Positions 6,266 through 59,318 are shown, counted from the first letter of the stretch. The stretch is 64,000 bases of DNA from Candidatus Moraniibacteriota bacterium (GCA_046116545.1 CP175956.1:897734-961733); one strand, 5' to 3'. A program made the numbers and translations. Notes: generated by a model from the sequence alone, not told the origin.

Positions 6266-6541
6266 TTATCCTAATTCAATTAGTTTTTTCTTTATACGCC
6301 TTAATTCATCTTCAATAAATGTTTCTTTTTCTGTAAATTTCTTGTTTTCAGTTTCATTTTCTTTTATATATACATTAATTCTACTTCGCTCTCGCTCATG
6401 TCTCCTCAGCTCATCTTTTAATTCTTCTTTTTTACGTTGCACTTTTTTTAAATCAGATCTATATGACATCTCTTGCATTGTTATACGTCTTTTAAGTTTG
6501 ACGAGTTCTTCATCTGACATGCTACTTTTATCTATATACAT
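6266..6541 (-). CDS. Hypothetical coiled-coil, K/R/E-rich protein (91 aa)
   Basis: Heptad-like charged repeats; no recognisable domain. Confidence 0.35.
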   Translation of the reverse strand: MYIDKSSMSDEELVKLKRRITMQEMSYRSDLKKVQRKKEELKDELRRHERERSRINVYIKENETENKKFTEKETFIEDELRRIKKKLIELG

Positions 6542-7568: not shown

Positions 7569-9350
7569 TTATTCTTTATCTTTTTGAGATTTATTAATTA
7601 TATTTCTAATAGAAGAAAGATCTATATTAGGTTTATTTGATGAATGTGCAAATTTCTTTGGAGCAACATGTTTTAGTTGAGATAATTTTAATGGTTTTTC
7701 ATTATTTGTTATCACAACATCCTTTTCGATAATTTCATCTTTTTTTTCCTCCTTCTTAACTGCTACTTTTTTAGGTGTTTTTTTTGGAATTTGTTCTTGT
7801 TGTGTATTTTCTTTTGTTTTAGCAAGTGTTCTCTGATGATCTTTAAAACACTCTTTACAAAAAACAGGCCTGTCACCATCAGGCTTAAATGGCACCTGAA
7901 CATTCAATTCACACATAGCACAAGTAGCATCATACACATCCTTTTTTTGAGACTCCTCATTATCATCATTTTTCACTACAGCAACTCTATCTGTAACTTT
8001 ATCTGTAACTTTTGTAGCATTAGTTTTTTTATTTTCTACAGTATTTCGTTTATTTGCAATTACAGTTGGCTTTTCTATAATCATTCCCGTCCATCTAGCT
8101 ATTTTTTCTTCAACTACCTCTCTATCCTCTGAATATCTTTCTCTAGAAACTTGTATCACCTTATCTGTACTATCCTCGTATTTTCTATCAATTGGCGGAA
8201 GTGTCGTAGCACTAAATGCATCTCCAGAAATACCATCTATCATCAACTTCAAATAAATATTGTATTTTGGCAAATTCACAATATCATTCATTGTAAACAC
8301 TGGCTCAAATTCTTTCTCAAGGTATTCAGCATCTGTCGCACCCACACGAAAAGAAACTATTGTCCCCACATTTCCAAATATAGCATCCCGCACAATTTCA
8401 TCTAGTTGCATTATGTACTGATTTGCTAAAATCAAATTCAAACGATATTTACGAGCTTCTGACAAAATATTTGCAAACGCCTCTGTAGCAAAGTTTTGAA
8501 ACTCATCAACATATAAATAAAAATCTTTACGACTTTCTTCTGGAGTATCTACCCTGCCCATAGCTGCAAGCTGAATTTTTGTAATAATCATTGCACCTAC
8601 CAAAGAACTATTATCCTCACCCATCCGTCCCTTTGATAAATTCAATATAAGAATTTTCTGATTATCCATTACATCACGTATATCAAAAGCTGATTTTGTT
8701 TGTCCCAATAAATTACGTATAATTGGACTTGTCAAAAACTGTCCAACTTTATTTTGGATTGGAGAAATAACCTCCTGTAAAACTCTTTCATTCCATTTTG
8801 GAAATTCATCCACCCAAAAAGCCTTCACAACAGGATCTGTAATATTATTAGATACACGAATACGATATTTTTTATCTGTCAAAATACGCATTACACCAAG
8901 TAAAGTACTACCAGGAGTCTCCAGTAAAGCCAATAAAGCATTTCTAAGAATATATTCAAGTCTAGGACCCCAAGAATCAGCCCACAATTTTTGAAATACA
9001 CCTATAAGACCAGAAGCAACCAAAGGTCGAAATTCACGTGGAACTTCTTCTAACACATTAAAAGCTATCGGGAAATCTTGATCAGAAGGATTAAAATAAA
9101 TGACATCATTTATTCTTTCTGGAGGTATCATACTAATTAACTTTTCTGCCGTATCACCATGTGGATCAACAAAACACATACCATGCCCACTTCGTATATC
9201 TTGAATAGCAAGATTCTCAAGCATGTTGGTTTTACCCATACCAGTCTTACCAATAGCGTATAAATGCCGACGTCTATCGTCAGTTTTTATACCAAATGCT
9301 GTTGCTTGATTTCTAAAATTCGTTTGTGCAAATGCTGTTATCTCTGTCAT
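7569..9350 (-). CDS. FtsK/HerA/VirD4-superfamily P-loop ATPase (type IV coupling-protein-like) with a C-terminal CxxC...CxxC zinc ribbon and a K-rich tail
   Basis: Walker A AIGKTGMGKTN followed by DPHGD; Walker B FYLYVDEFQNF. The C-terminus carries CAMCELNVQVPFKPDGDRPVFCKEC, then a lysine-rich tail. Confidence 0.55.
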   Translation of the reverse strand: MTEITAFAQTNFRNQATAFGIKTDDRRRHLYAIGKTGMGKTNMLENLAIQDIRSGHGMCFVDPHGDTAEKLISMIPPERINDVIYFNPSDQDFPIAFNVLEEVPREFRPLVASGLIGVFQKLWADSWGPRLEYILRNALLALLETPGSTLLGVMRILTDKKYRIRVSNNITDPVVKAFWVDEFPKWNERVLQEVISPIQNKVGQFLTSPIIRNLLGQTKSAFDIRDVMDNQKILILNLSKGRMGEDNSSLVGAMIITKIQLAAMGRVDTPEESRKDFYLYVDEFQNFATEAFANILSEARKYRLNLILANQYIMQLDEIVRDAIFGNVGTIVSFRVGATDAEYLEKEFEPVFTMNDIVNLPKYNIYLKLMIDGISGDAFSATTLPPIDRKYEDSTDKVIQVSRERYSEDREVVEEKIARWTGMIIEKPTVIANKRNTVENKKTNATKVTDKVTDRVAVVKNDDNEESQKKDVYDATCAMCELNVQVPFKPDGDRPVFCKECFKDHQRTLAKTKENTQQEQIPKKTPKKVAVKKEEKKDEIIEKDVVITNNEKPLKLSQLKHVAPKKFAHSSNKPNIDLSSIRNIINKSQKDKE

Positions 9351-9382
9351 AAAAAAATTATTTATTGATTGTAATATTATAC

Positions 9383-10636
9383 CTATTCAAATGGTAAATT
9401 ACTAGGTGCACTACCTTTTCTTGAATCTGACCATTGTACACTAGGAGCTTCTACCGACATATCCGGTAAATGAAATACCGTTGCCAATTCTTTTGTACTC
9501 AAATGAAATGGATAACCACTATCATCTCTATCACGATATCTTCTTAAAATTTTTCTCATTCTATATTCGCTTCTTGATTTTACACCAACATAATCAGCGT
9601 AAACTTTTGATCTATCAACTGGAATGAATTGATTTGTATGATTATCTGAAAACTGTTTTATTGAGGACATTGCACCACCAAGATTCACAGCAGTAAAAAA
9701 GTCTTTTTTTCCTACAACTATAAGTCTCATATTAACACTAAACATTGCTTTTGCAATGTTTTCTTCCAATACTTTTAATACCTGCTTTTCACCTGGACTA
9801 AGCTTAAACTCCAATGGTTGATCATCTCCAGCAGGAGTTTCAAATGCAGAAAATTCTGGAGGTGCATTCCACCCCACCATAATTCCGCCAAACACATCTT
9901 TTATATCAAACCATAATCTTGCAAATAATCCCTCTGGCTTTGCACTCTTTCCCAAAAAATCATCAACAGTTCCCTTACCCCAATCATTAAACCAAGGAGG
10001 CCTATCTGCTCTTATAATATACTGAAGCCACATATGTTGACCTGGACCAAGATTACCAATAGCTTCCAACATACTTGCTAGAGGATCCATCATTGTCCCA
10101 GTTACATCCTCATCAAAATATTCATATGTTTTGATTGGATATGCATCTGGTTTCAACAAAAATAAATCAAATCCTTTCAGTGTCCAATCTTCATTTGGAA
10201 TAACATTAGGAATATTCCCTGTATAATCTTGAACTTCTATTATTTCAACACTCGGATACTGCGCATAAAGAGAACTTTCAACTAAATCTCGAAAGGCTGC
10301 CGGTGTACGTATATAAAAATGTGCAGTACCTTCAGTACCTACTATTTCTAGACTAAAATATGGATTTCCAGCTCCATGACAATATGCACTTATCATATTC
10401 ACTCCTGCATCTGTTGCCGCGAGAGAATCAAAAAAACGTTCCATTATCTTTGGACTTTTTTCTATATCTCTAGGTGGTATAATCTCAAGCAAAACATCAT
10501 TTTGCTTCATGAGAAAGTCTGCTATAAACACATATCTTCCCCACAAACTTTTAAAGATTAACCAAAAAGTTATCGGCATGATTATAAACCAAGTCGACTG
10601 AAACGTCACAAAAATTTGTGAAAAAAATTCTGACAT
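9383..10636 (-). CDS. Membrane-anchored partner protein of the downstream ATPase (possible split N-terminal half of a coupling protein)
   Basis: N-terminal hydrophobic helices (WFIIMPITFWLIF...) followed by a 380-aa soluble domain. It lies 32 nt upstream of the ATPase gene on the same strand. Confidence 0.45.
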   Translation of the reverse strand: MSEFFSQIFVTFQSTWFIIMPITFWLIFKSLWGRYVFIADFLMKQNDVLLEIIPPRDIEKSPKIMERFFDSLAATDAGVNMISAYCHGAGNPYFSLEIVGTEGTAHFYIRTPAAFRDLVESSLYAQYPSVEIIEVQDYTGNIPNVIPNEDWTLKGFDLFLLKPDAYPIKTYEYFDEDVTGTMMDPLASMLEAIGNLGPGQHMWLQYIIRADRPPWFNDWGKGTVDDFLGKSAKPEGLFARLWFDIKDVFGGIMVGWNAPPEFSAFETPAGDDQPLEFKLSPGEKQVLKVLEENIAKAMFSVNMRLIVVGKKDFFTAVNLGGAMSSIKQFSDNHTNQFIPVDRSKVYADYVGVKSRSEYRMRKILRRYRDRDDSGYPFHLSTKELATVFHLPDMSVEAPSVQWSDSRKGSAPSNLPFE

Positions 10637-10706
10637 TAAACTTTATTTTTATATTTTATAACAAAATTATGCACTTTTTTAGTACAAGTATAAATTCATT
10701 ATAACA

Positions 10707-11756
10707 TTAACTAGCATTCGTATCTAGTGTATAATCATGTCCATTTACCTTTTTTGCAATAAGACTAAGATTCACTCTAACTGTAGTTGGCTTTACATGT
10801 CTCACCTGTAAAACTTTTTCTACAATATCATCAGCTGGCATAGGGCCACCTGCTTCTTCCAAGATTTTTAAAACAATATCCTTTACAGTTCCTTCCTCAT
10901 ATTCATTAAAATTCAATGCATATACACCACGTCCAACCAGCACAAAATTGTCATCTCGTATCAATTCATTATGAACTGTTTGTGGATGTGATTTTTTACC
11001 TTTCTTACCTAAACCGTAATCATCTATAGCTTGTGCTATTTCACGAAAATGCATTGGCGTATCTTTTTCTTTCATTATAAGTAATGATTTTTCCCTAACT
11101 CCTCTTGGTGAAATTTCATCCCAACCACTAAGTCCCCATTTATCAAATGGATTCTTATCAATTTCACTAGATACTACCAAGTAGCTCTCCAATTTATTTA
11201 AATCCATATTTTCCTGAACATTTGACATTTTTTCTTGCAATCGTTCACTCGAATATGTTTTTTGCTTATCTTCAAATATATTCTTTATAGAATCATGCAT
11301 TTCACTCCATTCATCCATATCAAATTCAGTAACAACAACAGAGCCTTTAATAACTGGATGTTTTTTTGAATTCACATAAGAAATTTCATCCATCCCTTCC
11401 ACAAGAAATCTAATCGCACCTTTTTCTTTATTATTTTCACCACCCAATTCCAATAGCTTATCAATATGCAAAACACCTCCATTATCACCAATTTCTGCAA
11501 TTATTTGTTTTTTAACATTATCTACTTCTTCTGAAGAATTAACATTTTTATTCATCTTAAGACCAGATTGAACAATTTGCCTGACTCTCTCACGAGTAAC
11601 ACCATATTCATCACCTATTGCCTGTAAAGTCTCTGGCTTTTCCAAACCAACACCAAAACGCCTTTCAACTATGGATTGTGACCTTTCTGGCATATCAGAT
11701 AATATCACTCCCAATACCTCATAAAATTGACTACTGTTATTATTTGTGCTATTCAT
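10707..11756 (-). CDS. DNA-binding protein: N-terminal sigma-70 region-4-like HTH plus C-terminal HARE-HTH-like domain
   Basis: TLQAIGDEYGVTRERVRQI resembles sigma70 region 4.2. The C-terminal segment VKDIVLKILEEAGGPMPADDIVEKVL resembles the HARE-HTH of the RNAP delta subunit. Confidence 0.5.
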   Translation of the reverse strand: MNSTNNNSSQFYEVLGVILSDMPERSQSIVERRFGVGLEKPETLQAIGDEYGVTRERVRQIVQSGLKMNKNVNSSEEVDNVKKQIIAEIGDNGGVLHIDKLLELGGENNKEKGAIRFLVEGMDEISYVNSKKHPVIKGSVVVTEFDMDEWSEMHDSIKNIFEDKQKTYSSERLQEKMSNVQENMDLNKLESYLVVSSEIDKNPFDKWGLSGWDEISPRGVREKSLLIMKEKDTPMHFREIAQAIDDYGLGKKGKKSHPQTVHNELIRDDNFVLVGRGVYALNFNEYEEGTVKDIVLKILEEAGGPMPADDIVEKVLQVRHVKPTTVRVNLSLIAKKVNGHDYTLDTNAS

Positions 11757-11831
11757 AAAAAAATATATTAAATTTACCCCTTAAATAAGCCTTTTTGTGA
11801 CTTCAAACAATTGTACCAAAAAACTCTTTTT

Positions 11832-11860
11832 TTGTCAAGCTTTTAAAAATGCTGTATACT
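11832..11860 (+). promoter_or_regulatory. Sigma70 promoter TTGTCA-17-TATACT
   Basis: -35 at 11832-11837 and -10 at 11855-11860, about 30 nt upstream of the ATG at 11889. Confidence 0.5.
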
Positions 11861-20035: not shown

Positions 20036-23000
20036 TTAATTAACAATAAACCAATTAAATAAGAGATTTTCTTCAGATATCACATCCACCACAATCTTGA
20101 AGAATTGTTCAGCTTGGTTTTCTTCTACAAAAAACGTATTCCCAATCATATCACTAATAGGCGTCACAAACACACGACTACTCTCATGAACTCCATCACT
20201 TTCCACAATAACCTCCGTCTCCCCAGCAACTATAGTAGCAGTTCCAATTGAAGAAGCATTGATTTCATTACCTTGTTCATCTTGGGTTGTTATGTTGTCA
20301 TTGATATTTAATGTATTTGTTTGGATATTATTCACTTTTAAATCATCTAATACAGTTAGGCCTTCTAATGTAGTAACTGGTCTTGTAATCTCTGTTGTAG
20401 TTTCTGTTGTAAACAAGAATCTTTCATTTATTGCTAGTACTGTATCTGAGTTTGTTGATACTATACTTGCTAGAGTTATTTGATCTTGTTCTAGTATATC
20501 CATCCTATCTTCTATTTCTTGTATTGTCTCTGTTGCTAATTTATTTGCATCTATTTGTAGGGATAGGTCACTGACCTGTCCTTCGATATGGTTAAACTTA
20601 TCTTCAATATCATTTAGATTTTCATCTACTGACAACTGTAAATCTTGTAATGTTTGGATATTTGTATTTGTTTGTAATATTGTGTTATTTATTTGAGTAT
20701 CAATTTCACTTATTTTTTCTGGAGTTGGTAGATTTGATATATCTATCAGATTTAGATTTGGTATTTCTAATCCTGTTGTTATATCTGTAATATATATTAG
20801 TTGTTGTCCTGTTAGTTTTTCTATCAATCTTACTGTTTTTGTCATATCTACATTTATTGATTTGTTGTCTTTTTCAGAGTAATAGCTCCATGCTAGTTCT
20901 TCACTTTGTCCTCCTGGTATATTTGAGAAATTATGTGGAGATAGAGTTGTTGTATTTCCTGCTTCATCTCTTACTCTTAGTTCATGGGAACCACTTTGAT
21001 CTACTGCAAATAGTTGTATTCCGTCTGTTATTGATGTTGTTGGGGCTATTGAGTTTGAGATTGTTAGGATATTGTCTGCATTTGTTCCGTAGTTGTTACT
21101 TCCTATTCCTACGTTTCCTGATGTGTAGGCTATGTTGTTTCCTGTTTGGGTCCAGAGTGATGATGCGCTTGCTCCTCCATTTATATCCCATGCGTATATT
21201 CTATATTCTCCTGTTGTCCATCTATTATCTCCCACTGTATTGCCATATGTATTTGTATTATCACCAGAAAATACGTAATCATTTGCAGTTGCTAAATCGA
21301 ATGTATTATCATCTTTAAATAATAAATAATGTCCAGACATTTCTGAAGTGCTTACTTGCGTACCAAATTGAGCAGTAGCATCCCAAACACGACCATTTGG
21401 ATCTTTAAATAAAACTGTTGTATTTAATTCTGAAGTTCCTAAATTATGAGTTAGTTGATAATTATTTTCTTTTGTAACAGCAACCCATCCGCTATCATAA
21501 TCAGGAAGATCCGCTCCACTACCCACAGCATCAGCACATTCCCATTCACTATTTATTTCATTATATGAAAGAGTTTGACCATTTGTGCATGTTGGTAATG
21601 AAGTACTTCCTGATGATTCTTCTATTTTCCAGATTTTTAAGTCTGTAAAGACAGCTGGGTCACTATCAGCAACACCACCTAATCCGATAACATTATTTAC
21701 TTGTGTATAATGAATTACTTTTATAGCTGTTGTCTGTGTTAATGTGATTTGTCCAGATGCTCTCACAGGTACCGTTGCTGCGTCAGCAGGATCACTATAT
21801 AATGTAGAGCCCACCAATAATACATTATCATTTTCATCATCAATACGTAAATTTGTTCTTTGTACTCTTAATGCTGGTGCTTCTACATCTATATAATATG
21901 TACCTACTGGCAACGTTACTTCATTTGCTGTAAGTGCTGTCTCTGCAATTTCATTTATCAAAATTGTATTAAGTGTTCTATGGTTATCTCCTGTACTTGC
22001 ACTACCACCATCTGAACCTGTTGTTTTTTGATCTTGTACATGCATGAGACTCCATGACTGACCTCCACTAATTCCTGAACCAGTAGTAGCATTCAAATTC
22101 ATTACCACCATACTACCATCATCACAATTAACCCAATTTGATCCATCGTACGCTTGCCATATTCCACTTACAAATTTTAAAGATGAACCCATCCTTCTTG
22201 AACTCACACTGCTTATAGTACAAGAATCAGCTATGTAGTTAGAAGTACCTATTACAGTTCCACCTATATTTGTAGCAGCCTCTCCACATCCAACTACATC
22301 ATCAGTTCCATCTCCATCAGATTGTTCATTTGTGCAGTGTAAGAAAATGTTATCTCCGCCTCCACTCAAACTGTCAGCACATTCCCATTCACTACTTGTT
22401 TCATTATATGAAAGAGTTTGACCATCTGTACATGTTGGTAATGATGAGGATGAAGAACTTCCTGCGTATTCGTATATGATAACTGCTCCATTTGCTCCAA
22501 CTGCAGCAGAAGATGCACCACCTCCAGCTCCACCTCCACCTGAACCATATGCACTACCAGCACCAGCACTTGTACTATTATAAGAACCGCCTGTACCACC
22601 ACCACCAAAATATGATGCACCACCAGTACCTGCATTACTATTTATATTTCCAAAACCTGTCCCTCCATCACCACCATCCGTATTTATATCTCCATCAAAA
22701 CCAGAACCACCTGCACCACCAGCTTGTGTATTACCTGAACTTCCACCAGTTGCTGATAATAATGAACCAAAAGAAGAGCTTCCACCTCCATTATTTACTG
22801 TACCCCCAGAACCAATTGTTACTGTCTCACTTGATATTTCTGAGACATCAATAATTTCTTCTGCATAACCACCTGCTCCACCACCTCCAGATGTTTGAGC
22901 AGAACTTCCACCACCACCTGCACCAACAACTTGAACACGAATAGTTTCAATTCCTACTGGTTTTGTCCATGTATGTGCTCCTGCTGTATCAAATGTTTGA

Positions 23001-26000
23001 ATTGATGCTATTCCTCCTCCACCTGAACTTCCACTATCTGTACTAAAAGCACCCCACTGCGTTCCATTACAAAACTCCATGACTTTTGTTGAGTCATTGT
23101 ATCTCATTGCACCTTCTTTGTTTACATCACATGCATCTGTATCATTTGTTAGAGTTATTGATCCTGTTAAGTTTATTGGTGCTGAAAACTCTATTTCATT
23201 TGATATTGTATTATATGATATTACTGCTTCATTTCCATCTTCTCCTATATGTAATGATGATGGTCCTAGGTATAGATCTCTAAATCTATTTGTTGAAGAT
23301 CCTAGGTCGTATGTATCATCTGTATCTGGTCCTATATTTCCTGCTACTTGTAATGTGAAGTTATCTGGAGTTGTTGTTCCTATTCCTACATTACCTAAAT
23401 CATAGTAAATGTCAGATCCACTTTGTGTCCAGATATCTGAATATGCCACACTACTACTTCCACCACTAACTTCTACACTTACTTCGACAGTTCCACTAAA
23501 TGATTCTGGTAATACAGCATACTCAGTAACATCATCACCAGTTGATCCTGTAATGAACATTTTTGTACCATCATTATTGAATGCAATACCTTGTGCTGAC
23601 GTGTCCTGTGCAAGTACACCAAACTTAGAACTATACACAGCAGTAGATACATCAAATGCATTGGAAAGATTGTACTCGTTTACTTCATCACCATTACTTC
23701 CCACAATAAACATCTTTGTTCCTTTGATATTAAAAGTAATATCTTGTGGTCCAGTTTCTTGTGCTGCAACAGAGAAATTAGAATCATATACTGTGGTAGA
23801 TATATCAAATCCCGTTGAGAGATGGTATTCATTAACATCATCACCTGTTACTCCTGTGATGAACATTTTTGTACCATCAGTATTAAATGCAATCCCCGTT
23901 GGAGAGTCTTCTTGTACGGTTATATCAAACCTGGAATCATATACTGCAGTGGACACATCAAATGCAGTAGAAAGATTATATTCATTTATTTCATCTGCTG
24001 TATTTCCTATAATAAACATTTTTGTTCCATCAGTGTTAAATGCTATGCCTTGTGGTGCAGCATCTTCTGAAAAATCAAAAATAGAATCGTATACAGCTGT
24101 TGTCACATCAAATGCGGTGGAGAGATGATATTCATTGATATCAGTACCTGTAGCACCCACAATAAACATTTTTGTTCCATCAGTATTAAATGTAATACCT
24201 TGTGGTGAAGTATCTTGCGCTGCAACACTAAAGCTAGCTGAATAATCGACAGGACTAAATTCAAATCCTCTTGGAAGATGGTATTCATTCACATCATCAC
24301 CCGTTGTGCCTGTAACGAACATTTTTGTACCATCATTATTGAATGCAATATTTTGTGGCAAAGACTCTTGTGCACTCACACTAAATCTGAAAACAAAATT
24401 TGCTGTAGAAATATCAAAACCAGTTGAAAGTTCATATTCATTAATATCAAGACCTACAGAACCAGTTATGAACATTTTTGTACCATCACCGTTAAAAGCA
24501 ATACCTGTTGGCGTAGTGTCTTGCGCTGCAACAGAGAAATTAGAATCATACACTGCAGTAGACACATCAAATCCTGTAGAAAGATGGTACTCGTTTATAT
24601 CATCACCTGTATTTCCTACAATGAACATTTTGGTTCCATCGGTGTTGAAATCAATGCCTTGTGGTGCAGTGTCTTGCGCTGCAACAGAGAAATTAGAATC
24701 ATACACTGCAGTAGACACATCAAATCCTGTAGAAAGATGGTACTCGTTCACATCATCACCACTTGTCCCAACAATGAACATCTTTGTACCATCAGTATTA
24801 AAAGTAACATCATTCGGAGCAGTTTCTTGTGCTGCGACAGAGAAATTAGAATCATACACTGCAGTCGATGTATCAAATCCTATTGAAAGATGGTATTCAT
24901 TGACATCATCACCTGTAGTTCCTGTGATAAACATTTTTGTTCCATCGTTATTAAAAGTAATTCCATTTGGCGCTGTTTCTTGTGCTCCAACACTAAAATT
25001 AGAATCAAATGTTGCAGTTTCACCAACAGTAAACCCTTCACTCACAGATTCAATTTTGATATTATCACTTGCGATTACATCGAAATAGTTATAATCATCA
25101 TCAATTAAACCTATCGTATGTTGCAAAACATCATCAGCAAGAACTCTCATAGAGCCAGTTGATAAATTTTCTGTGTCCACGACAACACGATAGAGACTTG
25201 TTTCCGTAAGGTTCTCAAAAGCAGTCCATGTCTCTGCTGTTGTAAATGTATGATTTAATCCTGATGTTCCTGTTGATAGTCCTCCCCAAGCAGTTCCATT
25301 ACAAAACTCCATGACTTTTGTAGTGTCATTGTATCTCATTGCACCTTCTTTTGTTACGTCACAAGCTGATGCGTCATTATTTAGAGTTATACTTCCTCCT
25401 ATTGCTAGATTGTTTCCATCATATGTGAAGTTTGAGTTTTGAGTTATTGCATTTCCTGCACTATTTGCAAATTGTATTTGATTTGCACTTAGGCTTGCTG
25501 GTGTATCTGTTAATCCTGTATATGTTGAAACTCCTCCACTTGATGTTAGAGAGTTCCATGTTGAACCATCGTATCCTTCTAGGTCTGTTCCTGACCATCT
25601 TATCATTCCTGCTACTGCATTTGTACTTGTCCCAAATACTGCTGCTTTATCAAAGTTGAAAGCTTCGTTTGTTGTATCGTAGCTTATTATTCCTTCATTT
25701 CCGTTTGTTCCTATATGTAGAGAGTTTGGTCCTAGGTATAGGTCTCTGAATCTATTTGTACTACTTCCTAGGTCGTATGTGTCATTTGTTGATGGTAATA
25801 AATTTCCTGTATTTGTTATTTGCAATCTTTCTACTCCATTTGTATCGAATCTTATTGTATCATCATCTAACTCACCTTTATCTGTTTGTATCCCTGTATC
25901 AGTATCTGCATCCCAAAGTGAAGCTAAGTAACCTCCCCCTGCATTGCTTGTTGATTTTATACAGTATAGGACATTTATGTTTGTTGGTCTTGTTTCGTTT

Positions 26001-27436
26001 CCTCCTGAATTTGCACTATTGAATGCTGCTATATCTACTGTGTGCGTATGTGCGCCTGCATAGTTTGTGTAACCAGTATTAAGAGTTGTGGTTGTAAGCC
26101 CAATAGCAACCCTCAGAGTTCCAGCTCCACCCGATGGTGTCGCTCCAGAAATTGAATGCCTGTGATTTCCAGTTGAATTTGTACTAGTACTAGGAGGATC
26201 AACAGAATGAAGATGAGCTTCATTTTGTCCATCTTGCATTGAACCAACAACATCCCCAGTAGTCCCATCACCTCTATCAGTACGACTTGCTGCATCAGGA
26301 TCTGTTCCTGCACCGTTGTCCCAACCTCTTAAAAACTGTCCCCTGTAATCAGGGATATCAAATGTTGTTGAACCATCTCCACTTCCATATGTATCTCCTA
26401 GTATTGTATATAGATCTGGATAACCTGCTCTTGATATTTCTTGACCTTCTGCAGATATATAGTTAGTTGGACATGAGTTTGTTGCAAAGGCTACTACTGT
26501 ACCTGCTGGAACTGTTTCACCTGCACCTCCTGATCCTGAACCTGTACTTAGCTCTTGCCAGTCTGATCCATCACAAAGTTCTAAAGTTTGATTTACTGAA
26601 TTATATCTTGTTGTCCCTGCTAAAACTGGAATACATGCACTTGATTCATTTCCTATCTTTATCCCTCCATTTACATCTAGAGTTGTTGCTGGTGTATTCG
26701 TATTTATTCCTAATCTATTATTTGAGTTATCCCAAAAGAAATTTGTATTATCTTCTTCTATTGCTGTAGGAGATGTGAATAGTACACTTCCTGCAGTATA
26801 TGCACTCATTGTATCTACTAATCCTAAAAATGTATTATCTATCCAATCTGTTCCTGTAGTCGTTGAAGATAATATTTGTCCATTAGTCCCTGCATTTATA
26901 TTTGAATCATAAAGTATTCCACTTACTGATAGATCTCCATCTATTGTTAAATTTGCATTCTTTGTTTGATTTGTTGTTGAATTCAAATAGTAATCTTCTG
27001 TTTGTCCATTAAATCTATGTGAGTTTAAAGCAAAACCTGTAGGAGTTATCTTTCTCCTTGGAGTCATTTCTGGATTTGAGTTTATTGTTACTCCTAAGTA
27101 ATAGTTTGAATCAAAAGATATATCTAATAGGTTATCTCCTGTTTCTCCTAGAGTTGTACTAAATATTCCATTTGTTATTGTAATTGTTTTTGAAGTTGGA
27201 GTTCCACATGATCCTCTACTTGTCCATAGACAATTTCCTCCTGTGTCTGCATCGTATATTGTTAATGTAAAATCATAATCTCCATCTGATACTGCTACGT
27301 TATTAGTATCTGTTAGTTTTCCATGATATGTTAGTTCACTGTCTGGTGCAGCTTGTGTAATTGAAAAATTAAGAATTATTGCTAACGCAATTATTCCTAA
27401 TATGTAAGTTAATTTGTTTTTGAAAGTTTTTTTCAT
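20036..27436 (-). CDS. Giant secreted or cell-surface protein (2466 aa) with phage tail-fibre-like modules
   Basis: The N-terminal signal peptide is MKKTFKNKLTYILGIIALAIILNFSITQA. A tail-collar-like segment reads ...YPDLYTILGDTYGSGDGSTTFDIPDYRGQFLRGWDNGAGTDPDAASRT...HTHTV. About 12 tandem 43-44-aa repeats follow (...P.GI.FN.DGTKMFI.G..GDD.NEYHLSTGFDVSTAVYDS.FSVAAQ). There is a Gly-rich domain (TFDTAGAHTWTKPVGIETIRVQVVGAGGGGS...) and a duplicated LPTCT(D/N)GQTLSYNE..SEWECAD module. A C-terminal coiled coil is present, and there is no C-terminal TM helix. Confidence 0.8.
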   Translation of the reverse strand: MKKTFKNKLTYILGIIALAIILNFSITQAAPDSELTYHGKLTDTNNVAVSDGDYDFTLTIYDADTGGNCLWTSRGSCGTPTSKTITITNGIFSTTLGETGDNLLDISFDSNYYLGVTINSNPEMTPRRKITPTGFALNSHRFNGQTEDYYLNSTTNQTKNANLTIDGDLSVSGILYDSNINAGTNGQILSSTTTGTDWIDNTFLGLVDTMSAYTAGSVLFTSPTAIEEDNTNFFWDNSNNRLGINTNTPATTLDVNGGIKIGNESSACIPVLAGTTRYNSVNQTLELCDGSDWQELSTGSGSGGAGETVPAGTVVAFATNSCPTNYISAEGQEISRAGYPDLYTILGDTYGSGDGSTTFDIPDYRGQFLRGWDNGAGTDPDAASRTDRGDGTTGDVVGSMQDGQNEAHLHSVDPPSTSTNSTGNHRHSISGATPSGGAGTLRVAIGLTTTTLNTGYTNYAGAHTHTVDIAAFNSANSGGNETRPTNINVLYCIKSTSNAGGGYLASLWDADTDTGIQTDKGELDDDTIRFDTNGVERLQITNTGNLLPSTNDTYDLGSSTNRFRDLYLGPNSLHIGTNGNEGIISYDTTNEAFNFDKAAVFGTSTNAVAGMIRWSGTDLEGYDGSTWNSLTSSGGVSTYTGLTDTPASLSANQIQFANSAGNAITQNSNFTYDGNNLAIGGSITLNNDASACDVTKEGAMRYNDTTKVMEFCNGTAWGGLSTGTSGLNHTFTTAETWTAFENLTETSLYRVVVDTENLSTGSMRVLADDVLQHTIGLIDDDYNYFDVIASDNIKIESVSEGFTVGETATFDSNFSVGAQETAPNGITFNNDGTKMFITGTTGDDVNEYHLSIGFDTSTAVYDSNFSVAAQETAPNDVTFNTDGTKMFIVGTSGDDVNEYHLSTGFDVSTAVYDSNFSVAAQDTAPQGIDFNTDGTKMFIVGNTGDDINEYHLSTGFDVSTAVYDSNFSVAAQDTTPTGIAFNGDGTKMFITGSVGLDINEYELSTGFDISTANFVFRFSVSAQESLPQNIAFNNDGTKMFVTGTTGDDVNEYHLPRGFEFSPVDYSASFSVAAQDTSPQGITFNTDGTKMFIVGATGTDINEYHLSTAFDVTTAVYDSIFDFSEDAAPQGIAFNTDGTKMFIIGNTADEINEYNLSTAFDVSTAVYDSRFDITVQEDSPTGIAFNTDGTKMFITGVTGDDVNEYHLSTGFDISTTVYDSNFSVAAQETGPQDITFNIKGTKMFIVGSNGDEVNEYNLSNAFDVSTAVYSSKFGVLAQDTSAQGIAFNNDGTKMFITGSTGDDVTEYAVLPESFSGTVEVSVEVSGGSSSVAYSDIWTQSGSDIYYDLGNVGIGTTTPDNFTLQVAGNIGPDTDDTYDLGSSTNRFRDLYLGPSSLHIGEDGNEAVISYNTISNEIEFSAPINLTGSITLTNDTDACDVNKEGAMRYNDSTKVMEFCNGTQWGAFSTDSGSSGGGGIASIQTFDTAGAHTWTKPVGIETIRVQVVGAGGGGSSAQTSGGGGAGGYAEEIIDVSEISSETVTIGSGGTVNNGGGSSSFGSLLSATGGSSGNTQAGGAGGSGFDGDINTDGGDGGTGFGNINSNAGTGGASYFGGGGTGGSYNSTSAGAGSAYGSGGGGAGGGASSAAVGANGAVIIYEYAGSSSSSSLPTCTDGQTLSYNETSSEWECADSLSGGGDNIFLHCTNEQSDGDGTDDVVGCGEAATNIGGTVIGTSNYIADSCTISSVSSRRMGSSLKFVSGIWQAYDGSNWVNCDDGSMVVMNLNATTGSGISGGQSWSLMHVQDQKTTGSDGGSASTGDNHRTLNTILINEIAETALTANEVTLPVGTYYIDVEAPALRVQRTNLRIDDENDNVLLVGSTLYSDPADAATVPVRASGQITLTQTTAIKVIHYTQVNNVIGLGGVADSDPAVFTDLKIWKIEESSGSTSLPTCTNGQTLSYNEINSEWECADAVGSGADLPDYDSGWVAVTKENNYQLTHNLGTSELNTTVLFKDPNGRVWDATAQFGTQVSTSEMSGHYLLFKDDNTFDLATANDYVFSGDNTNTYGNTVGDNRWTTGEYRIYAWDINGGASASSLWTQTGNNIAYTSGNVGIGSNNYGTNADNILTISNSIAPTTSITDGIQLFAVDQSGSHELRVRDEAGNTTTLSPHNFSNIPGGQSEELAWSYYSEKDNKSINVDMTKTVRLIEKLTGQQLIYITDITTGLEIPNLNLIDISNLPTPEKISEIDTQINNTILQTNTNIQTLQDLQLSVDENLNDIEDKFNHIEGQVSDLSLQIDANKLATETIQEIEDRMDILEQDQITLASIVSTNSDTVLAINERFLFTTETTTEITRPVTTLEGLTVLDDLKVNNIQTNTLNINDNITTQDEQGNEINASSIGTATIVAGETEVIVESDGVHESSRVFVTPISDMIGNTFFVEENQAEQFFKIVVDVISEENLLFNWFIVN

Positions 27437-30654: not shown

Positions 30655-30727
30655 GGGCCAGTAGCTCATCTGGTAGAGCGCCTCACTTGCACTGAGGAGG
30701 TAGCGGGTTCAAGTCCTGTCTGGTCCA
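30655..30727 (+). tRNA. tRNA-Ala (anticodon TGC)
   Basis: Cloverleaf GGGCCAG...CTGGTCC with a G3:U70 pair and anticodon loop CTTGCAC. No CCA is encoded. Confidence 0.85.
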
Positions 30728-30759
30728 CAACTTCACAATGCACAATAAAAAAATATTAA

Positions 30760-30833
30760 GGGCGATTAGCTCAGCTGGTTAGAGCGCGTCACTGATAATG
30801 ACGAGGTCCGAGGTTCAAGTCCCCGATCGCCCA
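30760..30833 (+). tRNA. tRNA-Ile (anticodon GAT)
   Basis: GGGCGAT acceptor, anticodon loop CTGATAA, T-loop GGTTCAAGTCC. Confidence 0.85.
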
Positions 30834-30837
30834 CATA

Positions 30838-37100: not shown

Positions 37101-38270
37101 TTAGAGATTTTTACAAATCATTTCCCCCATTTCTTTTGTGCCAACAATTTTACTCCCACTAGTTGCAAAATCTTTTGTTGCATAACCTTGTTGCAATGTT
37201 TTTGTCACTGCATTAGTTATAGCTGTAGCACCGTTAGGCATTTGCTTATGCTCAAGCATCATGCCTGCAGTCCAGATTCTACCAAGTGGATTAATCAGGT
37301 CCTTGCCCGCTATATCTACAGCAGTACCAGCACCTGACTCAAACATAGCAACGCCATTATCTGGGTTAATAGCAGATGAACACATAAGTCCCATTCCACC
37401 AAAAATCTCCGCAGCACCATCCGACAAAATATCACCATGCTCATTGCCACAAGCTATAACACCATGTAATTTCGACGGATGCGGGAGCAATGCATTTGCA
37501 GAATCAACAAGCTGATGTCTGAGTTCTACATCAGGAAACTCACTATCATGAATATCATCACAAAGTAATCGCCAAAATTTATAGCGCGCCATGACATTTG
37601 CTTTGTCAACAGAAATCAAAGGCAGATTTCTATCTTTTGCATACTGAAATGCATATCGCAAATATTTTTCAATATTTTTACGAGTATAGTATGCGAATTC
37701 GATAATTTGCCTTTCTTGACCATTTACTTCGTCAATTGTGCAAACACCAATATTCTTCAACAAATGATAAAAAGCTTTACTTCTTTGAAGTATCATTTTC
37801 ATTACATTCGATGTACCAAAATAACTATCCTCTAGCAAATAACGAATATAATGCTGTTGACAACCGTCCTCAGGTAAATATTCAGCTTTCAAAGGTGATA
37901 AATGATTAAATGCCTTGTTAAAAAGCATCGGACGAAAATTAAGAAGTAAACCCCAATTTTCTCTTATACCCAAAAGACATCTTGCTTCGGGTCTCATCTT
38001 TGGATACTGGGTTCCGATTGTTTTATCAATCTCAGGATCACCAACTCCTCCAAAGAACAACGTTCCAATTTGAGTTGCTGTCTTAAATGATTCTTTAGGA
38101 AACGTATCTCCAAAATCACCATAAGCCTTCCAACCCATTGGAGTCTCTGGAAAACTAAGGTCTACATCATCTTTCTTTGCAGCTTCTACCGCAATCATGC
38201 AAGCAACTTCCATCGCTTCTGGCGCAGCACCATCACCTCTTACAAGTGCAATTTCTTCTTTTTGCATCAA
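37101..38270 (-). CDS. Isocitrate/isopropylmalate dehydrogenase-family enzyme (LeuB-like)
   Basis: The motif NEHGDILSDGAAEIFGGMGL matches NLFGDILSD...GSLG. Its start overlaps the stop of the upstream gene (ATGA). Confidence 0.75.
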   Translation of the reverse strand: MMQKEEIALVRGDGAAPEAMEVACMIAVEAAKKDDVDLSFPETPMGWKAYGDFGDTFPKESFKTATQIGTLFFGGVGDPEIDKTIGTQYPKMRPEARCLLGIRENWGLLLNFRPMLFNKAFNHLSPLKAEYLPEDGCQQHYIRYLLEDSYFGTSNVMKMILQRSKAFYHLLKNIGVCTIDEVNGQERQIIEFAYYTRKNIEKYLRYAFQYAKDRNLPLISVDKANVMARYKFWRLLCDDIHDSEFPDVELRHQLVDSANALLPHPSKLHGVIACGNEHGDILSDGAAEIFGGMGLMCSSAINPDNGVAMFESGAGTAVDIAGKDLINPLGRIWTAGMMLEHKQMPNGATAITNAVTKTLQQGYATKDFATSGSKIVGTKEMGEMICKNL

Positions 38271-40027
38271 TCTTCCTCCTTAGAGTTAAGCTTAGCAGCT
38301 AATTCAATCATCATACCCATACTACCACCAGCATCAATTAATTTTTTCTGCTGATTAGTAAGTGAAAAAGAGACAATCTCTTCTTTTGTATGTTTTGTTG
38401 AAATAATACCCTTATTAACATCAATATCAAGAACATCTACAAAACATTTATCTATTATTTTGTCTATATCCTCCTGGGACATCGTGATACAAAGCATTCC
38501 ATTGTTAAACATACTTGTTTCAAAAATCCTTGCAAAACTTGGTGCAATCACCGTATTTATTCCAGACTCACGAAAAGCATACACAGCATGTTCACGAGAA
38601 GATCCACAACCAAAATTTTTACCAGATATAAGTACACCGGCAGGTCCTAATTGAGCCTTTTGAGAATCTGTTAACCCAGCATCTTCTAAACAATGCTCAC
38701 CGAAAACAGAAAGTTCTACTTTGGTTAAATACCTAGCCGGAATGATTTGGTCTGTATCCACATTTTCTTTTGGTAAATGAAAAATCATTCCCCCAAATGT
38801 TAACTTTGAACCACCATCATTACTTACTAATGATTTATAATCGATTTCATCAAACGATTTATAAACCAATTCCACAGGCTTTGCAACATTATCAAATGCC
38901 CAATCTTGATACAAAGAATCCAGCAGCTCTTCGCCTGGCACATCTATATATCCCATAATAGCAGTAATTGCTGCAACAGCTGGTGAAGCTAAATGTACCA
39001 TAGCATTTTTCCCCATCCTTCCTGGAAAATTTCTGTTTGTAGTTGAAACACAAACTTCATCTGGCGCCAAAACACCATTACTCATACCAAGACAAGCGCC
39101 ACAGGTTGGACCACTCATATAGCAGTTGGCTTCACTGAGAATTTTAAATATTCCCTCTTCCACCATTTGCTGTTGCACTCTTTGAGTTGTTGGAGTAATT
39201 ATACATCGCACTCCATCACATACCATTGCACCAGTTTGTTGAAAAATATGAGCCACAATACGGAAATCCTCAATGCGTCCATTTGTACATGAACCAATAT
39301 AAACTTGATCAACCTTTTTACCTCTCAAGTTACTAACATTAATCCCCTCATCAGGACTATATCCATCAGTAATCATTGGTTGCATATCAGTCACATCAAT
39401 CGTAACCGTTTTAGCATACTCACAATCATCATCACTATTAAATCTTGATAAATCAAGTAAAGCACTCTCCTTGTCATCATAATTTTCAGAAATAATAGGC
39501 CATAGGTAATTAATGGTATTTTCATCAACCATCATCATGCCAGACGTAGCGCCTGCTTCAACTGACATGTTCGTAATAGTCATACGTTGTTCCATGTTCA
39601 TCTCATCGATGACATTACCACCAAATTCCAAAATTGCATTAGTAGCACCATTTGTTTTAATGGTAGCTAGTAATTGCAAAATCATATCTTTGGAAAAAAC
39701 ATTTTTAGACAATTTGCCTACAAAGTTAACACGAATTACCTCTTGTTTACCAATTGCAACGTTTCCCGTAATTAAGCCTGATTCCAAATCAGTTGTACCA
39801 ACTCCAAAAGAAAGTGTACAAAAAGCACCGTGAGTACAGGTATGAGAATCACCCATAATCCCCACATCTCCAGGTAGAACCAATCCATATTCTGGAATAA
39901 GTGCATGACAAACTCCATTTTCTCCAATATCAAACATTCTGATGTCATGCTTTTTTGCAAAAGTCCGCATTATCCTGCCTTGAATTGCAGTATCCGAATC
40001 TTTTGCAGGACTAACATGATCAATCAT
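38267..40027 (-). CDS. Fused aconitase-family dehydratase large plus small subunit (LeuC/LeuD-like), intact portion
   Basis: MGDSHTCTHGAF and downstream aconitase motifs, then a C-terminal swivel (LeuD-like) domain. It begins at a Met equivalent to E. coli LeuC residue about 60. Confidence 0.75.
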   Translation of the reverse strand: MIDHVSPAKDSDTAIQGRIMRTFAKKHDIRMFDIGENGVCHALIPEYGLVLPGDVGIMGDSHTCTHGAFCTLSFGVGTTDLESGLITGNVAIGKQEVIRVNFVGKLSKNVFSKDMILQLLATIKTNGATNAILEFGGNVIDEMNMEQRMTITNMSVEAGATSGMMMVDENTINYLWPIISENYDDKESALLDLSRFNSDDDCEYAKTVTIDVTDMQPMITDGYSPDEGINVSNLRGKKVDQVYIGSCTNGRIEDFRIVAHIFQQTGAMVCDGVRCIITPTTQRVQQQMVEEGIFKILSEANCYMSGPTCGACLGMSNGVLAPDEVCVSTTNRNFPGRMGKNAMVHLASPAVAAITAIMGYIDVPGEELLDSLYQDWAFDNVAKPVELVYKSFDEIDYKSLVSNDGGSKLTFGGMIFHLPKENVDTDQIIPARYLTKVELSVFGEHCLEDAGLTDSQKAQLGPAGVLISGKNFGCGSSREHAVYAFRESGINTVIAPSFARIFETSMFNNGMLCITMSQEDIDKIIDKCFVDVLDIDVNKGIISTKHTKEEIVSFSLTNQQKKLIDAGGSMGMMIELAAKLNSKEED

Positions 40028-55965: not shown

Positions 55966-57741
55966 TTACTTTCGTAAAACTTGTAACGTTCTCCTAGTAC
56001 AATTATCCCAACTAAATTTATCAACTCTTCCATCAGCACCTTTTCTTAATCGTTCTCGCAGATCCTCATTTGAAAATATTTCATTAATACTCTCAGCACA
56101 TTGCACACTATCTCCAGCATTAAAATACAAAGCATTTTCACCAAGGATTTCTGGAATGCTCGAATTTTTCGTTGATACTACAGGAAGTCCAACTGCACAA
56201 GCTTCTAATACAGGTAATCCAAATCCTTCATACTTTGATGCAAAAACAAACACACTAGCATTTTGCATCAAAACTTTCACTTCCTCAAAATCAATATTTC
56301 CCGTAAATAGTATGTCATTGCTATATTTACACTTCTCTGCATATGCATGTATGTCTTCACTCATCCATCCATCCCCACCAACTAATACTAACTTCAATAT
56401 TTTATTTTTTTCCTTAACAATATTAAATGAATCTATTATTGTTTTGATATCTTTACGAGGTTGAATCGCTCCAACATGCATTAAAAACTCACAATTCAAT
56501 AAATCATATTTACCTAAAATCTTATCAATAACTTCTTTTTCATATTCTTTCCGCCATTGATCTTTGTCTATTCCATGATGCACAACTGTAATTTTGTCAG
56601 ACTTTATACTTGGATAAAATTTTAATATATCATTTCTAGTGGCCTTTGATACAGCAATTATGCTATCAGAATTTTTTACTGCATAATCAGTTTGAATATT
56701 AAGCCTTCTTAAATCTTTTTTTAGAAATGTATTTGGAAATATTTTAAATGCAAGATCATGAATTGTTACAACTACTTTAGTTTTTTTACTCCGAACCCTA
56801 CATACATTATGAAGCGGCATCCATACAACATCAGGATTTTTTATAAGAATTTCAAAAGCAAACATCGTTTGTGTCCACATTGGAATATTCTTCAACTTCT
56901 TAATAATATAATTCGTATATTTTTTTGGACTTAATTTATTATTAAATTTATTTTTGTGATAAATATAAAACTTATCCTCCTTTGCTTTTTCACCAAACCT
57001 ATCTAAAACTTCTTTCAAATATACACGTGTTCCATCTATTCTACTTTCATCTAACTCAGAAGCATGTACAGCTATATCCATGCAGAATTCATCAATACTG
57101 TTGCTTGATTCTAAAGTAAAATCTCCAACTCTAGTGCGTTGTAATCCACCAAGATAAGCACCTGTGCTTAAATATTTACCAATATCTCTAGCTAGTGTCC
57201 TTATATAAGTTCCCTTTCCACACACAACACTAATTCTTAAATTTGGATATTTATATTCTAATATTTTAATATTTCTTATTTCAACTACCCGTTCTTTCAT
57301 TTCAACAGTCTCTCCACGACGAGCCTTTTTATAAGCTTCTTCCCCATCTATTTTTATAGCACTATAAGCAGATGGTATTTGTGTTATATTTCCAACAAAT
57401 TCATCAATGCATTTTTTTACCTCTTCCTCATTTGGCTGTATATCCTTATTTATAACTTTTTTCTCACCCTCAGCATCATCAGTACTGCTATTCTCTCCCA
57501 AAATAATATCAGCAATGTATTCTTTTTCAGCTTTTACAATGATATCTATTTTCCTAGTATATTCACGTCCAACTGCCATCACCAAAACACCACTAGCCAA
57601 CGGGTCTAATGTTCCAGCATGTCCAACTTTAATTTTTTTATTTCCAGTCTTTCGCCTAGCCCAATACTTCACTATCTGCACAGCTCTCTGTGAAGTAATT
57701 CCAACTGGCTTATCAACTGCAAAAATACCCTTTACCTTCAT
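55966..57741 (-). CDS. truB: Fusion protein: tRNA pseudouridine55 synthase TruB catalytic domain plus GT4-family glycosyltransferase
   Basis: Residues 1-225 carry GHAGTLDP (catalytic Asp) and GTYIRTL. Residues about 290-591 have the Glyco_trans_4/GT1 pattern (...IHDLAF..., EGFGLPVLEA). The frame is continuous with no intervening stop. Confidence 0.7.
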   Translation of the reverse strand: MKVKGIFAVDKPVGITSQRAVQIVKYWARRKTGNKKIKVGHAGTLDPLASGVLVMAVGREYTRKIDIIVKAEKEYIADIILGENSSTDDAEGEKKVINKDIQPNEEEVKKCIDEFVGNITQIPSAYSAIKIDGEEAYKKARRGETVEMKERVVEIRNIKILEYKYPNLRISVVCGKGTYIRTLARDIGKYLSTGAYLGGLQRTRVGDFTLESSNSIDEFCMDIAVHASELDESRIDGTRVYLKEVLDRFGEKAKEDKFYIYHKNKFNNKLSPKKYTNYIIKKLKNIPMWTQTMFAFEILIKNPDVVWMPLHNVCRVRSKKTKVVVTIHDLAFKIFPNTFLKKDLRRLNIQTDYAVKNSDSIIAVSKATRNDILKFYPSIKSDKITVVHHGIDKDQWRKEYEKEVIDKILGKYDLLNCEFLMHVGAIQPRKDIKTIIDSFNIVKEKNKILKLVLVGGDGWMSEDIHAYAEKCKYSNDILFTGNIDFEEVKVLMQNASVFVFASKYEGFGLPVLEACAVGLPVVSTKNSSIPEILGENALYFNAGDSVQCAESINEIFSNEDLRERLRKGADGRVDKFSWDNCTRRTLQVLRK

Positions 57742-58287: not shown

Positions 58288-58502
58288 ACTATTATATTTA
58301 TTATTTAAATATATAACTTATTATACCACTAAAAATAAAATATCTACATTTAGATTTATATATTAAAACCAACTACATTATATCATTATTAATATCCTCA
58401 ATATGCCTATAAAAACCTAAAACCACATTAAAGCAAATACTCGTTAGTTAAAAAAATACAGCCATCAAGAGTATTACTCTCATGACTGTATAATCTATAA
58501 AC

Positions 58503-59177: not shown

Positions 59178-59318
59178 CACACATACCTCCTTTTTATATT
59201 TTATTGTAAATAATACAAAATTAAAGATTACATTAGACATTACCATAAATCATAAATTCCGACAACCCTTGTTTTTCCCTATATATAATGTATAATATCC
59301 AAAAGCACGTTCTGATGC

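Follow-up and report, generated by a model that had tools for sequence, protein, structure and literature searches.

The subject of this study is a unit of three genes at positions 7569-11756 of a 64,000-nucleotide stretch of DNA from a Candidatus Moraniibacteriota bacterium (GCA_046116545.1 CP175956.1:897734-961733). This whole stretch is called the window below. The unit encodes a helix-turn-helix (HTH) protein, a protein of the family DUF8128 and an ATPase related to the coupling proteins of type IV secretion systems (T4SSs). An initial annotation made from the sequence had described three co-directional genes here, and open reading frames (ORFs) were found at exactly these coordinates, all on the minus strand. 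Gene 1 (10707-11756) encodes the HTH protein of 349 amino acids (aa), gene 2 (9383-10636, 417 aa) encodes the DUF8128 protein, which we call the partner, and gene 3 (7569-9350, 593 aa) encodes the ATPase. The genes of the partner and the ATPase are separated by an intergenic gap of 32 nt, which contains further stop codons. Both proteins have 100% identical copies on a Candidatus Moraniibacteriota contig, which makes the window part of a Patescibacteria chromosome.

Sequence features of the three proteins

Judged from its sequence, the ATPase is a soluble, catalytically intact homologue of the VirD4/TrwB-type type IV coupling proteins (T4CPs) with an internal all-alpha domain. Its T4CP-type P-loop core (aa 1-425, nt 8076..9350, minus strand like all features of the three genes) emerged from Pfam, PDB and fold searches. 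The core carries the Walker A motif GKTGMGKT (aa 34-41, nt 9228-9251), the motif DPHGD (aa 62-66, nt 9153-9167) and the Walker B motif YLYVDEFQNF (nt 8490-8519, with VDEFQNF at aa 281-287). GKTGMGKT, DPHGD and VDEFQNF had already been named in the initial annotation; all three are present and invariant in 32 homologues, and so is much of aa 1-425. Against Pfam, the protein matched TrwB_AAD_bind (PF10412, 41.4 bits with a cut-off of 20.5, E 1e-10), a match that spans the all-alpha region, and TraG-D_C (PF12696, 26.4 bits with a cut-off of 22, E 7e-6). Against PDB sequences, with either the single sequence or a 32-sequence profile as the query, the only real matches were the coupling proteins TrwB and DotL. 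The resemblance to T4CPs that had been suggested initially is therefore well founded. A fold search with Foldseek pointed the same way: the 15 best matches were TrwB chains or DotL (TrwB E 3e-7), followed by more TrwB, HerA, Cagbeta and the C-terminal domain of VirB4 (E 2e-4). In the AlphaFold2 (AF2) model, aa 41-320 are well modelled, while the first 40 residues and aa 326-385 are poor. The model predicts an all-alpha insertion of seven helices between Walker A and Walker B (aa ~105-215, nt 8706-9038, pLDDT 76-90).

Other families of P-loop motors fit less well. No FtsK_SpoIIIE match was obtained from Pfam or NCBIfam at E up to 0.1, and FtsK chains were absent both from the 50 top-ranked fold matches listed and from the PDB sequence matches. 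A housekeeping FtsK, which the initial annotation had named as the finding that would speak against its proposal, is thus not what the best matches indicate. DUF87 reached 15.1 bits, under its cut-off of 23.2, and in the fold search HerA comes after the T4CPs; among the models that had been put forward for searching, it is TraG-D_C that matches, and FtsK_SpoIIIE and DUF87/HerA do not. There was also no Pfam match to a VirB4-type ATPase domain (PF19044/AAA_10). The ATPase profile gave weak matches, at the P-loop level, to both TrsE (VirB4) and TrsK (T4CP) of pSK41. No hydrophobic segment was found in the ATPase, whose maximal 19-residue hydropathy is 1.39. Since the chain has no N-terminal transmembrane (TM) domain of its own and no local linkage to T4SS or relaxase genes, we name it a T4CP homologue and not a proven coupling protein.

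Behind the core, between variable low-complexity linkers, lies a treble-clef zinc ribbon of the form CxxC-x17-CxxC (aa 471-505, nt 7836..7940; zf_Tbcl_2 E 1.2e-13, TIGR04272 E 5e-14). Its cysteines C477, C480, C498 and C501 are invariant in the 32 homologues. The two CxxC pairs were recognized correctly from the start, and only the spacing given then, 16 residues, has to be changed to 17. This CxxC-x17-CxxC domain binds zinc in small archaeal proteins of Methanosarcina (PMC12704099). The chain closes with the lysine-rich tail that had been described (nt 7569..7835), with 20 lysines among the final 88 residues. This tail, which includes a terminal helix, may serve for docking or for the binding of nucleic acid. 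Within the tail there is a short C-terminal motif, LSQLKHVAPKKF (aa 556-567, nt 7650-7685), in which P564 and F567 are invariant and A563, K565 and K566 are present in at least 90% of the aligned sequences.

The partner is a member of DUF8128 (PF26449): precomputed Pfam results assign this family to the identical protein P0001 and to every one of the 120 homologues listed. It gave no match to our local copies of Pfam and NCBIfam, and the local Pfam copy lacks the PF26449 model. A profile of the partner family identified 2,912 representative clusters among 1.84 billion; the best 150 of these 2,912 are all standalone proteins of 224-691 aa, mostly longer than 400 aa. At its N-terminus the partner has a hydrophobic helix (aa ~8-30, nt 10547-10615) with a moderate Kyte-Doolittle maximum of 1.54 over 19 residues, followed by basic residues, so that the sequence makes one anchor in the membrane and a body in the cytoplasm plausible. 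The AF2 model (pLDDT 74.8, pTM 0.70) shows one long N-terminal helix and then alpha/beta domains. The large soluble domain proposed initially agrees with this alpha/beta body, while the several TM helices proposed along with it reduce to one moderately hydrophobic helix. The further suggestion that structure prediction might reveal the partner as the TM and all-alpha half of a canonical T4CP did not hold, as the all-alpha insertion lies inside the ATPase (aa 105-215). At its end the partner has a tail of strong conservation, FHLPD...APSNLPFE (nt 9386-9475); in the fused relatives described below, this tail adjoins the ATPase.

The fold of the partner points in another direction. When the model was compared with PDB by Foldseek, all 14 significant matches were TrwK/VirB4 of the R388 T4SS (E 3e-6 to 2e-4, probability 1.0, TM-score just 0.34-0.42), and the next match came at E 4e-3. 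The model also matched gp155 of Bacillus phage G (E 2.6e-7), which is a VirB4-type ATPase by Pfam. On the basis of these models, the body of the partner probably resembles the N-terminal domain of VirB4. The family profile had no match among PDB sequences, and there was no sequence-level match of the profile to TrsD of pSK41, a TraC-like protein from Candidate Phyla Radiation (CPR) bacteria or phage G gp155. Because all sequence-profile tests failed, the link between DUF8128 and the VirB4 N-domain is drawn from the predicted fold only.

Gene 1 encodes the two DNA-binding-type domains that had been assigned to it. A Sigma70_r4 HTH occupies aa 19-67 (nt 11556-11702, Pfam E 1.8e-11), and a C-terminal HARE-HTH occupies aa 225-281 (nt 10914-11084, Pfam E 3e-15) together with a second stretch; the middle region has no family match. 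Against PDB sequences, the matches were limited to region 4 of primary sigma factors. Both domain types of the protein are known from RNA polymerase subunits: region 4 from sigma factors and HARE-HTH from the delta subunit. HARE-HTH is also found in restriction-linked proteins according to the domain description.

Split and fused forms

At the level of sequence, it can be demonstrated that the partner and the ATPase are one ancestral protein cut in two. With gp156 of Bacillus phage G as the seed, a search brought up about 90 CPR proteins in which PF26449 and PF10412 share one chain; they are 725-1142 aa long and belong to Berkelbacteria, Falkowbacteria, Saccharibacteria, Gottesmanbacteria and others. 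In BLASTP comparisons, the partner falls on the first ~380 residues of these fused proteins (22-30% identity, E down to 1e-40) and the ATPase core on the following ~420 residues (41-58% identity, E down to 1e-176). When the partner and the ATPase are concatenated, they are collinear with the fused chains over the gene boundary, with a gap of 4-6 residues. These one-chain relatives support the initial proposal that anchor and motor have been placed on separate polypeptides. The two are separate ORFs in 80 of 80 related loci, and therefore the split is no sequencing artefact. In a rough neighbour-joining tree of the ATPase domains, the split zinc-ribbon forms are monophyletic and nested among fused clades, so that fission is the simplest history. 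All 120 split ATPases listed carry the zinc ribbon, and no fused relative does. Both this C-terminal ribbon and the lysine-rich tail are gains of the split form.

Fused homologues also occur in phages. On phrog_5156 (824 positions), the ATPase matches positions 408-815 (E 1e-59) and the partner positions 63-189 (E 3e-5). In gp156 of Bacillus phage G (825 aa), the ATPase part lies at aa ~381-758. The N-terminus of gp156 aligns with the partner profile (hhalign probability 96%, E 2e-9), and its N-terminal half matches the partner model in fold (E 2e-17, TMq 0.52, BFVD). The SPO1 gp27.4 family is related to gp156 in the ATPase half; the N-terminal half of gp27.4 had no match to the partner profile.

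Two observations were made beside these comparisons. In phage G (JN638751.1, our locus L081, 693-4835), two T4SS-type ATPase genes lie side by side: gp155, of 549 aa with VirB4-type P-loop_TraG/AAA_10 domains, and gp156, a DUF8128-like and T4CP-like fusion. In two Berkelbacteria-type loci (L089 4899-10784 and L090 2432-8348), we found two tandem fused DUF8128-T4CP paralogues of ~830 and ~930 aa, each behind a small ORF without a family match. Such tandem paralogues fit the published figure for Patescibacteria of about two T4CP homologues in each genome.

Conservation of the unit

We examined the gene order in a scan of one genome per species, which gave 207 partner relatives, and 80 loci were kept. 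The ATPase gene is 3' of the partner gene on the same strand in all 80 loci, and the HTH gene is directly 5' of the partner gene in 76, with two of the four exceptions at contig ends. When all ORFs of the loci were clustered, the flanking genes varied by lineage with the triad intact. The triad was also found on a more distant Parcubacteria contig, where the flanks were different again. The initial annotation had considered that the 417-aa protein might be unrelated and fail to co-occur with the ATPase; the 80 loci and the fused homologues show the opposite.

For a reciprocal test, the HTH protein was used as the seed on metagenome contigs, where the HTH proteins are just 29-37% identical. The partner gene lies immediately 3' in 55 of the 68 loci with enough sequence, and the ATPase gene comes next in 25 of 37. 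Both scans thus place the HTH gene within the unit, as had been assumed. Several of the other loci have YceG and MnmA behind the HTH-DUF8128 pair instead. The pair is the most persistent link of the triad, and the split has let the ATPase gene relocate. Overall, identity in the same genomes is ~75% for the ATPase core, ~45% for the partner and 36-61% (mostly 44-58%) for alanyl-tRNA synthetase (AlaRS).

One HTH-seeded metagenome locus (L148, 3375-8555) has a different layout, in which a 219-aa ORF comes after the DUF8128 gene and is succeeded by genes for a short TrwB_AAD_bind ATPase of 443 aa and a 624-aa zinc-ribbon-type ATPase, so that two T4CP-like motors lie behind one anchor gene. We also noticed that many triad-bearing metagenome-assembled genomes with CPR-type neighbours (L003, L005, L010, L012, L023 and ~20 more) are titled 'Micavibrio', 'Bdellovibrionales' or 'Pseudobdellovibrionaceae', and that one protein is labelled Verrucomicrobiae. 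These labels are probably taxonomic mislabels.

Relation to type IV secretion systems

Homologues of the VirD4 type are counted within the T4SS repertoire of CPR bacteria (PMC12102498; PMC12857230). They are near-universal in Patescibacteria, with about two per genome, and mostly unlinked to T4SS genes (PMC12102498). Before the Patescibacteria T4SS, no T4SS had been shown to be essential to the bacterium that has it (PMC12857230). In our data, one fused sister clade of 726-736 aa is encoded next to such a system: in three of three loci, the fused gene lies beside, and divergent from, a cluster of PrgI, TraC-like, VirB4 (P-loop_TraG) and M23 peptidase genes at dnaA-dnaN, and T4SS pilin genes are present in two of the three. 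The PrgI/TraC-like/VirB4 cluster matches the Patescibacteria T4SS of PMC12102498. Genes of the other fused clades are found among housekeeping genes or as tandem paralogues. No HTH gene was seen at the fused loci examined, and the small ORFs 5' of the fused relatives are unrelated to the HTH protein.

Genomic surroundings

The window has a low GC content (0.27-0.39) and a negative GC skew that is steady throughout. The genes 5' of the triad are housekeeping genes, encoding the ATP synthase beta and epsilon subunits and SnoaL-like and AhpD-like proteins. On the 3' side, a Na+/Ca2+ exchanger gene begins 5 nt past the ATPase stop and is followed by genes for a 91-aa coiled-coil protein, AlaRS, MraZ and MraW. 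A Pfam scan of the window ORFs found no integrase, phage or transfer genes flanking the triad. With the same scan and with tblastn searches using CPR T4SS proteins, no secretion-system gene besides the triad was found in the window, just as the initial annotation had seen none; the remainder of the window consists of ordinary genes. A NurA or effector neighbour of the triad was likewise absent from the clustered ORFs of the related loci. A tie between the triad and the downstream mraZ-mraW division cluster was considered but not kept, as it is limited to five close relatives and a single distant contig.

The top sigma-70-like promoter match of the region, TTGACA-17-TACAAT with a TG extension (11810..11838, minus strand, 11 of 12 consensus positions), lies 5' of the HTH gene. 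By its sequence, this site is a candidate start of one transcript spanning all three genes, and no terminator-like sites were found between them in a terminator and promoter scan of the region. A terminator-like hairpin at 7868-7884 falls within the zinc-ribbon coding sequence and was taken as coincidental.

Several further features of the window were recorded. The 91-aa protein downstream of the triad (6266-6541, minus strand) is highly charged and has no family assignment; in 10 related loci (cluster c14; L002-L010 and L016), its gene is kept between the Na+/Ca2+ exchanger (or ATPase) and AlaRS genes. An Rfam scan of the window found four tRNAs and nothing else. Among them, tRNA-Ala(TGC) and tRNA-Ile(GAT) adjoin at 30655-30834 (plus strand), with no rRNA anywhere in the window by Rfam. 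Such a pair usually sits in the spacers of rRNA operons. A giant ORF of 2466 aa (20036-27436, minus strand), with a phage tail collar domain at aa 312-369 and a glycine-rich domain at aa 1484-1655, may encode one of the large proteins for the cell surface or for adhesion that CPR genomes commonly have. At 37101-40027 (minus strand), a 586-aa aconitase-family protein with the large and small domains in one chain is encoded with a 4-nt overlap with an isocitrate/isopropylmalate dehydrogenase gene, a pair that is notable as central or amino-acid metabolism in a reduced CPR genome. A single ORF of 591 aa (55966-57741, minus strand) has a TruB pseudouridine synthase as its N-terminal half and a family-4 glycosyltransferase as its C-terminal half; the alternatives here are an unusual fusion and the read-through of two genes. 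Finally, at 57748-59246 (minus strand), a 179-aa protein with a PycTM domain (Pycsar effector TM domain, E 1e-9) adjoins an HD-domain protein, with no cyclase seen beside it. The PycTM protein may be a defence remnant.

Discussion

The interpretation that we favour, and that we rate as evenly poised between right and wrong, is that the locus is the Moranbacteria/Parcubacteria split version of a Patescibacteria-wide DUF8128-VirD4-like coupling ATPase, whose substrate is moved via the CPR T4SS. The DUF8128 protein would be tethered to the membrane by its N-terminal helix and would form a collar similar to the VirB4 N-domain, on which a hexamer of the ATPase would dock non-covalently. The docking contact may involve the partner tail (...FHLPD...NLPFE) and the ATPase N-terminus (ITAFAxTNFRN...DDRRRH); these proposed surfaces are the two segments that flank the old junction, and both are highly conserved. 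The ATP-driven motor would then recruit its substrate, most likely nucleic acid or nucleoprotein, and push it towards a membrane channel. The zinc ribbon, the basic tail and the HTH protein may supply the recognition of substrate or DNA. An analogy for the tail and the HTH protein is given by F-like conjugation, where the C-terminus of TraD works with TraM. The channel would be the chromosomal CPR T4SS, encoded elsewhere near oriC. We regard a CPR T4SS encoded elsewhere as the most likely channel of the motor, with chances that are about even.

In its parts, the triad resembles several known systems. It shares both modules, their order and the chromosomal location with the fused DUF8128-VirD4-like proteins of Patescibacteria, which are annotated as 'type IV secretion system DNA-binding domain-containing protein'. 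Unlike them, it consists of two genes for these modules and has the zinc ribbon, the lysine-rich tail, the C-terminal motif and the fixed upstream sigma4/HARE-HTH gene. Like the canonical T4CPs (TrwB of R388, VirD4, TraD, DotL and Cagbeta), the ATPase has a P-loop nucleotide-binding domain with an inserted all-alpha domain. It is also extended at its C-terminus, where the extensions of canonical T4CPs serve partner recognition (PF12696 description). On the other hand, the ATPase chain lacks the N-terminal two-helix TM domain of the canonical proteins, and the candidate anchor is instead a separate DUF8128 protein with a VirB4-N-domain-like predicted fold. There are no relaxase or T4SS genes nearby, and the sequence conservation is much stronger. 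Although the predicted fold of the partner matches only VirB4 (TrwK) among the significant PDB matches, the motor here is of the T4CP type and not of the VirB4 type. A VirB4-type N-domain on a separate polypeptide has precedents in TrsD and TrsE of pGO1/pSK41 and in the TraC-like and VirB4 proteins of CPR (PMC12102498). In the Sulfolobales DNA-import ATPases CedB and CedD, the VirB4 N-terminal domain is divided over two polypeptides (PMC11868833), a precedent for modular N-domains in DNA transporters. Phage G gp156 and phrog_5156 have the same one-chain layout as the fused CPR forms, at ~30% identity; gp156 differs from the triad in its viral context beside the VirB4-like gp155 and in having neither a zinc ribbon nor an HTH partner. 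The family is already counted among the T4CP homologues of Patescibacteria (PMC12102498), and DUF8128 is a Pfam entry. Literature searches on DUF8128, PF26449 and CxxC-x17-CxxC yielded no account of this protein. In particular, we found no published description of DUF8128 as a VirB4-N-domain-like substitute for the T4CP membrane domain, of the gene fission, of the accompanying zinc-ribbon tail or of the fixed sigma4/HARE-HTH partner.

A number of observations weigh against a T4SS coupling ATPase at this locus. T4SS genes lie near the split triad in 0 of 160 loci, and none were found in the window (tblastn with CPR T4SS proteins). In the literature, 5,713 VirD4-type homologues are counted in 2,918 Patescibacteria genomes, only 148 of them close to virB4, CPR bacteria rarely have relaxases, and the t4cp gene of Southlakia is dispensable while the T4SS is essential, for which the authors raise exaptation (PMC12102498). 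An identity of ~75% across Moranbacteria is unusually high for a T4CP, and in some lineages HTH and DUF8128 stay together with the ATPase elsewhere. The models add their own limits: the AF2 model of the ATPase is moderate (pLDDT 64) with a poorly modelled Walker A, and the likeness of the partner to the VirB4 N-domain is at the fold level only (TM-score 0.34-0.42), without sequence-profile support. The main alternative is that the split pair and the sigma4/HARE-HTH protein are an exapted motor independent of any T4SS, an autonomous housekeeping machine acting on the cell's own or incoming DNA. Such a machine might serve in membrane-tethered DNA translocation, segregation or uptake, or might be linked to transcription, with the sigma-4 and delta-like HARE domains touching RNA polymerase. 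The triad is conserved like a core gene in housekeeping surroundings, the zinc ribbon and basic tail were acquired along with the fission, the tightest linkage is to a protein of two RNA-polymerase-subunit domain types, and exaptation is left open in the literature (PMC12102498). However, no positive evidence favours one particular alternative role, among the closest fused clades there is one whose genes lie firmly within T4SS loci, and T4CPs are often encoded apart from virB4 (PMC12102498). We consider this explanation possible but doubtful, and it is given that much weight because the triad is never linked to T4SS genes, has core-gene-like conservation and is associated with a partner of RNA-polymerase-type domains. 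Its more specific form, in which the triad would be a membrane-tethered nucleic-acid motor core to Moranbacteria/Parcubacteria that was exapted from a conjugation coupling protein, with the HTH protein as the DNA-targeting subunit and the zinc-ribbon tail as a substrate clamp, appears unlikely to us.

Defence and phage origins are both far less probable. The initial annotation had left room for a conflict-system ATPase, and an anti-phage system of a HerA/mad8-like ATPase with a DNA-sensing HTH protein does find some echo in PADLOC: the ATPase matches mad8 of MADS (E 2e-16) and, weakly, HerA models, and the HTH protein matches MzaA via sigma region 4 only. HARE-HTH domains are also found in restriction-linked proteins. 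But the mad8 match reflects the generic P-loop fold only, as Pfam and PDB place the ATPase with the T4CPs; the partner has no PADLOC match, there is no nuclease or other effector gene in the unit, and neither a complete MADS nor another PADLOC system in a defence-island context was found at the triad. The unit sits among varying housekeeping neighbours and not in variable islands, and ~75% identity of the ATPase runs counter to the fast turnover that defence genes usually show. Patchy presence between strains was not seen either. This core-gene-like conservation in housekeeping surroundings makes a conflict system very improbable. A remnant of a prophage or integrative element with a gp156-like phage ATPase is hardly credible at all. 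Fused homologues do exist in Bacillus phages (phage G gp156, the SPO1 gp27.4 family, phrog_5156), yet these are ~30% identical, against 41-81% for the CPR chromosomal relatives. No integrase, phage or transfer genes lie beside the unit, and the base composition is uniform. The three genes and the housekeeping genes around them lose identity in parallel, which is what vertical inheritance would produce. The picture is thus the reverse of one with att sites, integrases or variable insertion points.

Much of bacterial diversity belongs to the Patescibacteria, and a coupling ATPase of the kind that we favour would be a CPR coupling protein in which the usual TM domain is replaced by a DUF8128 module with a VirB4-N-like predicted fold. 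Since this module is a separate gene in Moranbacteria/Parcubacteria, the interface between anchor and motor is testable in trans. The acquired zinc ribbon and basic tail, together with the fixed DNA-binding-type partner, point to nucleic acid as the substrate. The comparison also revealed a pair of T4SS-type ATPases in Bacillus phage G. If exaptation were true, the triad would amount to a novel type of machine for DNA (or RNA polymerase-linked) translocation. The uncharacterised Pfam family DUF8128 now has a context and a probable role.

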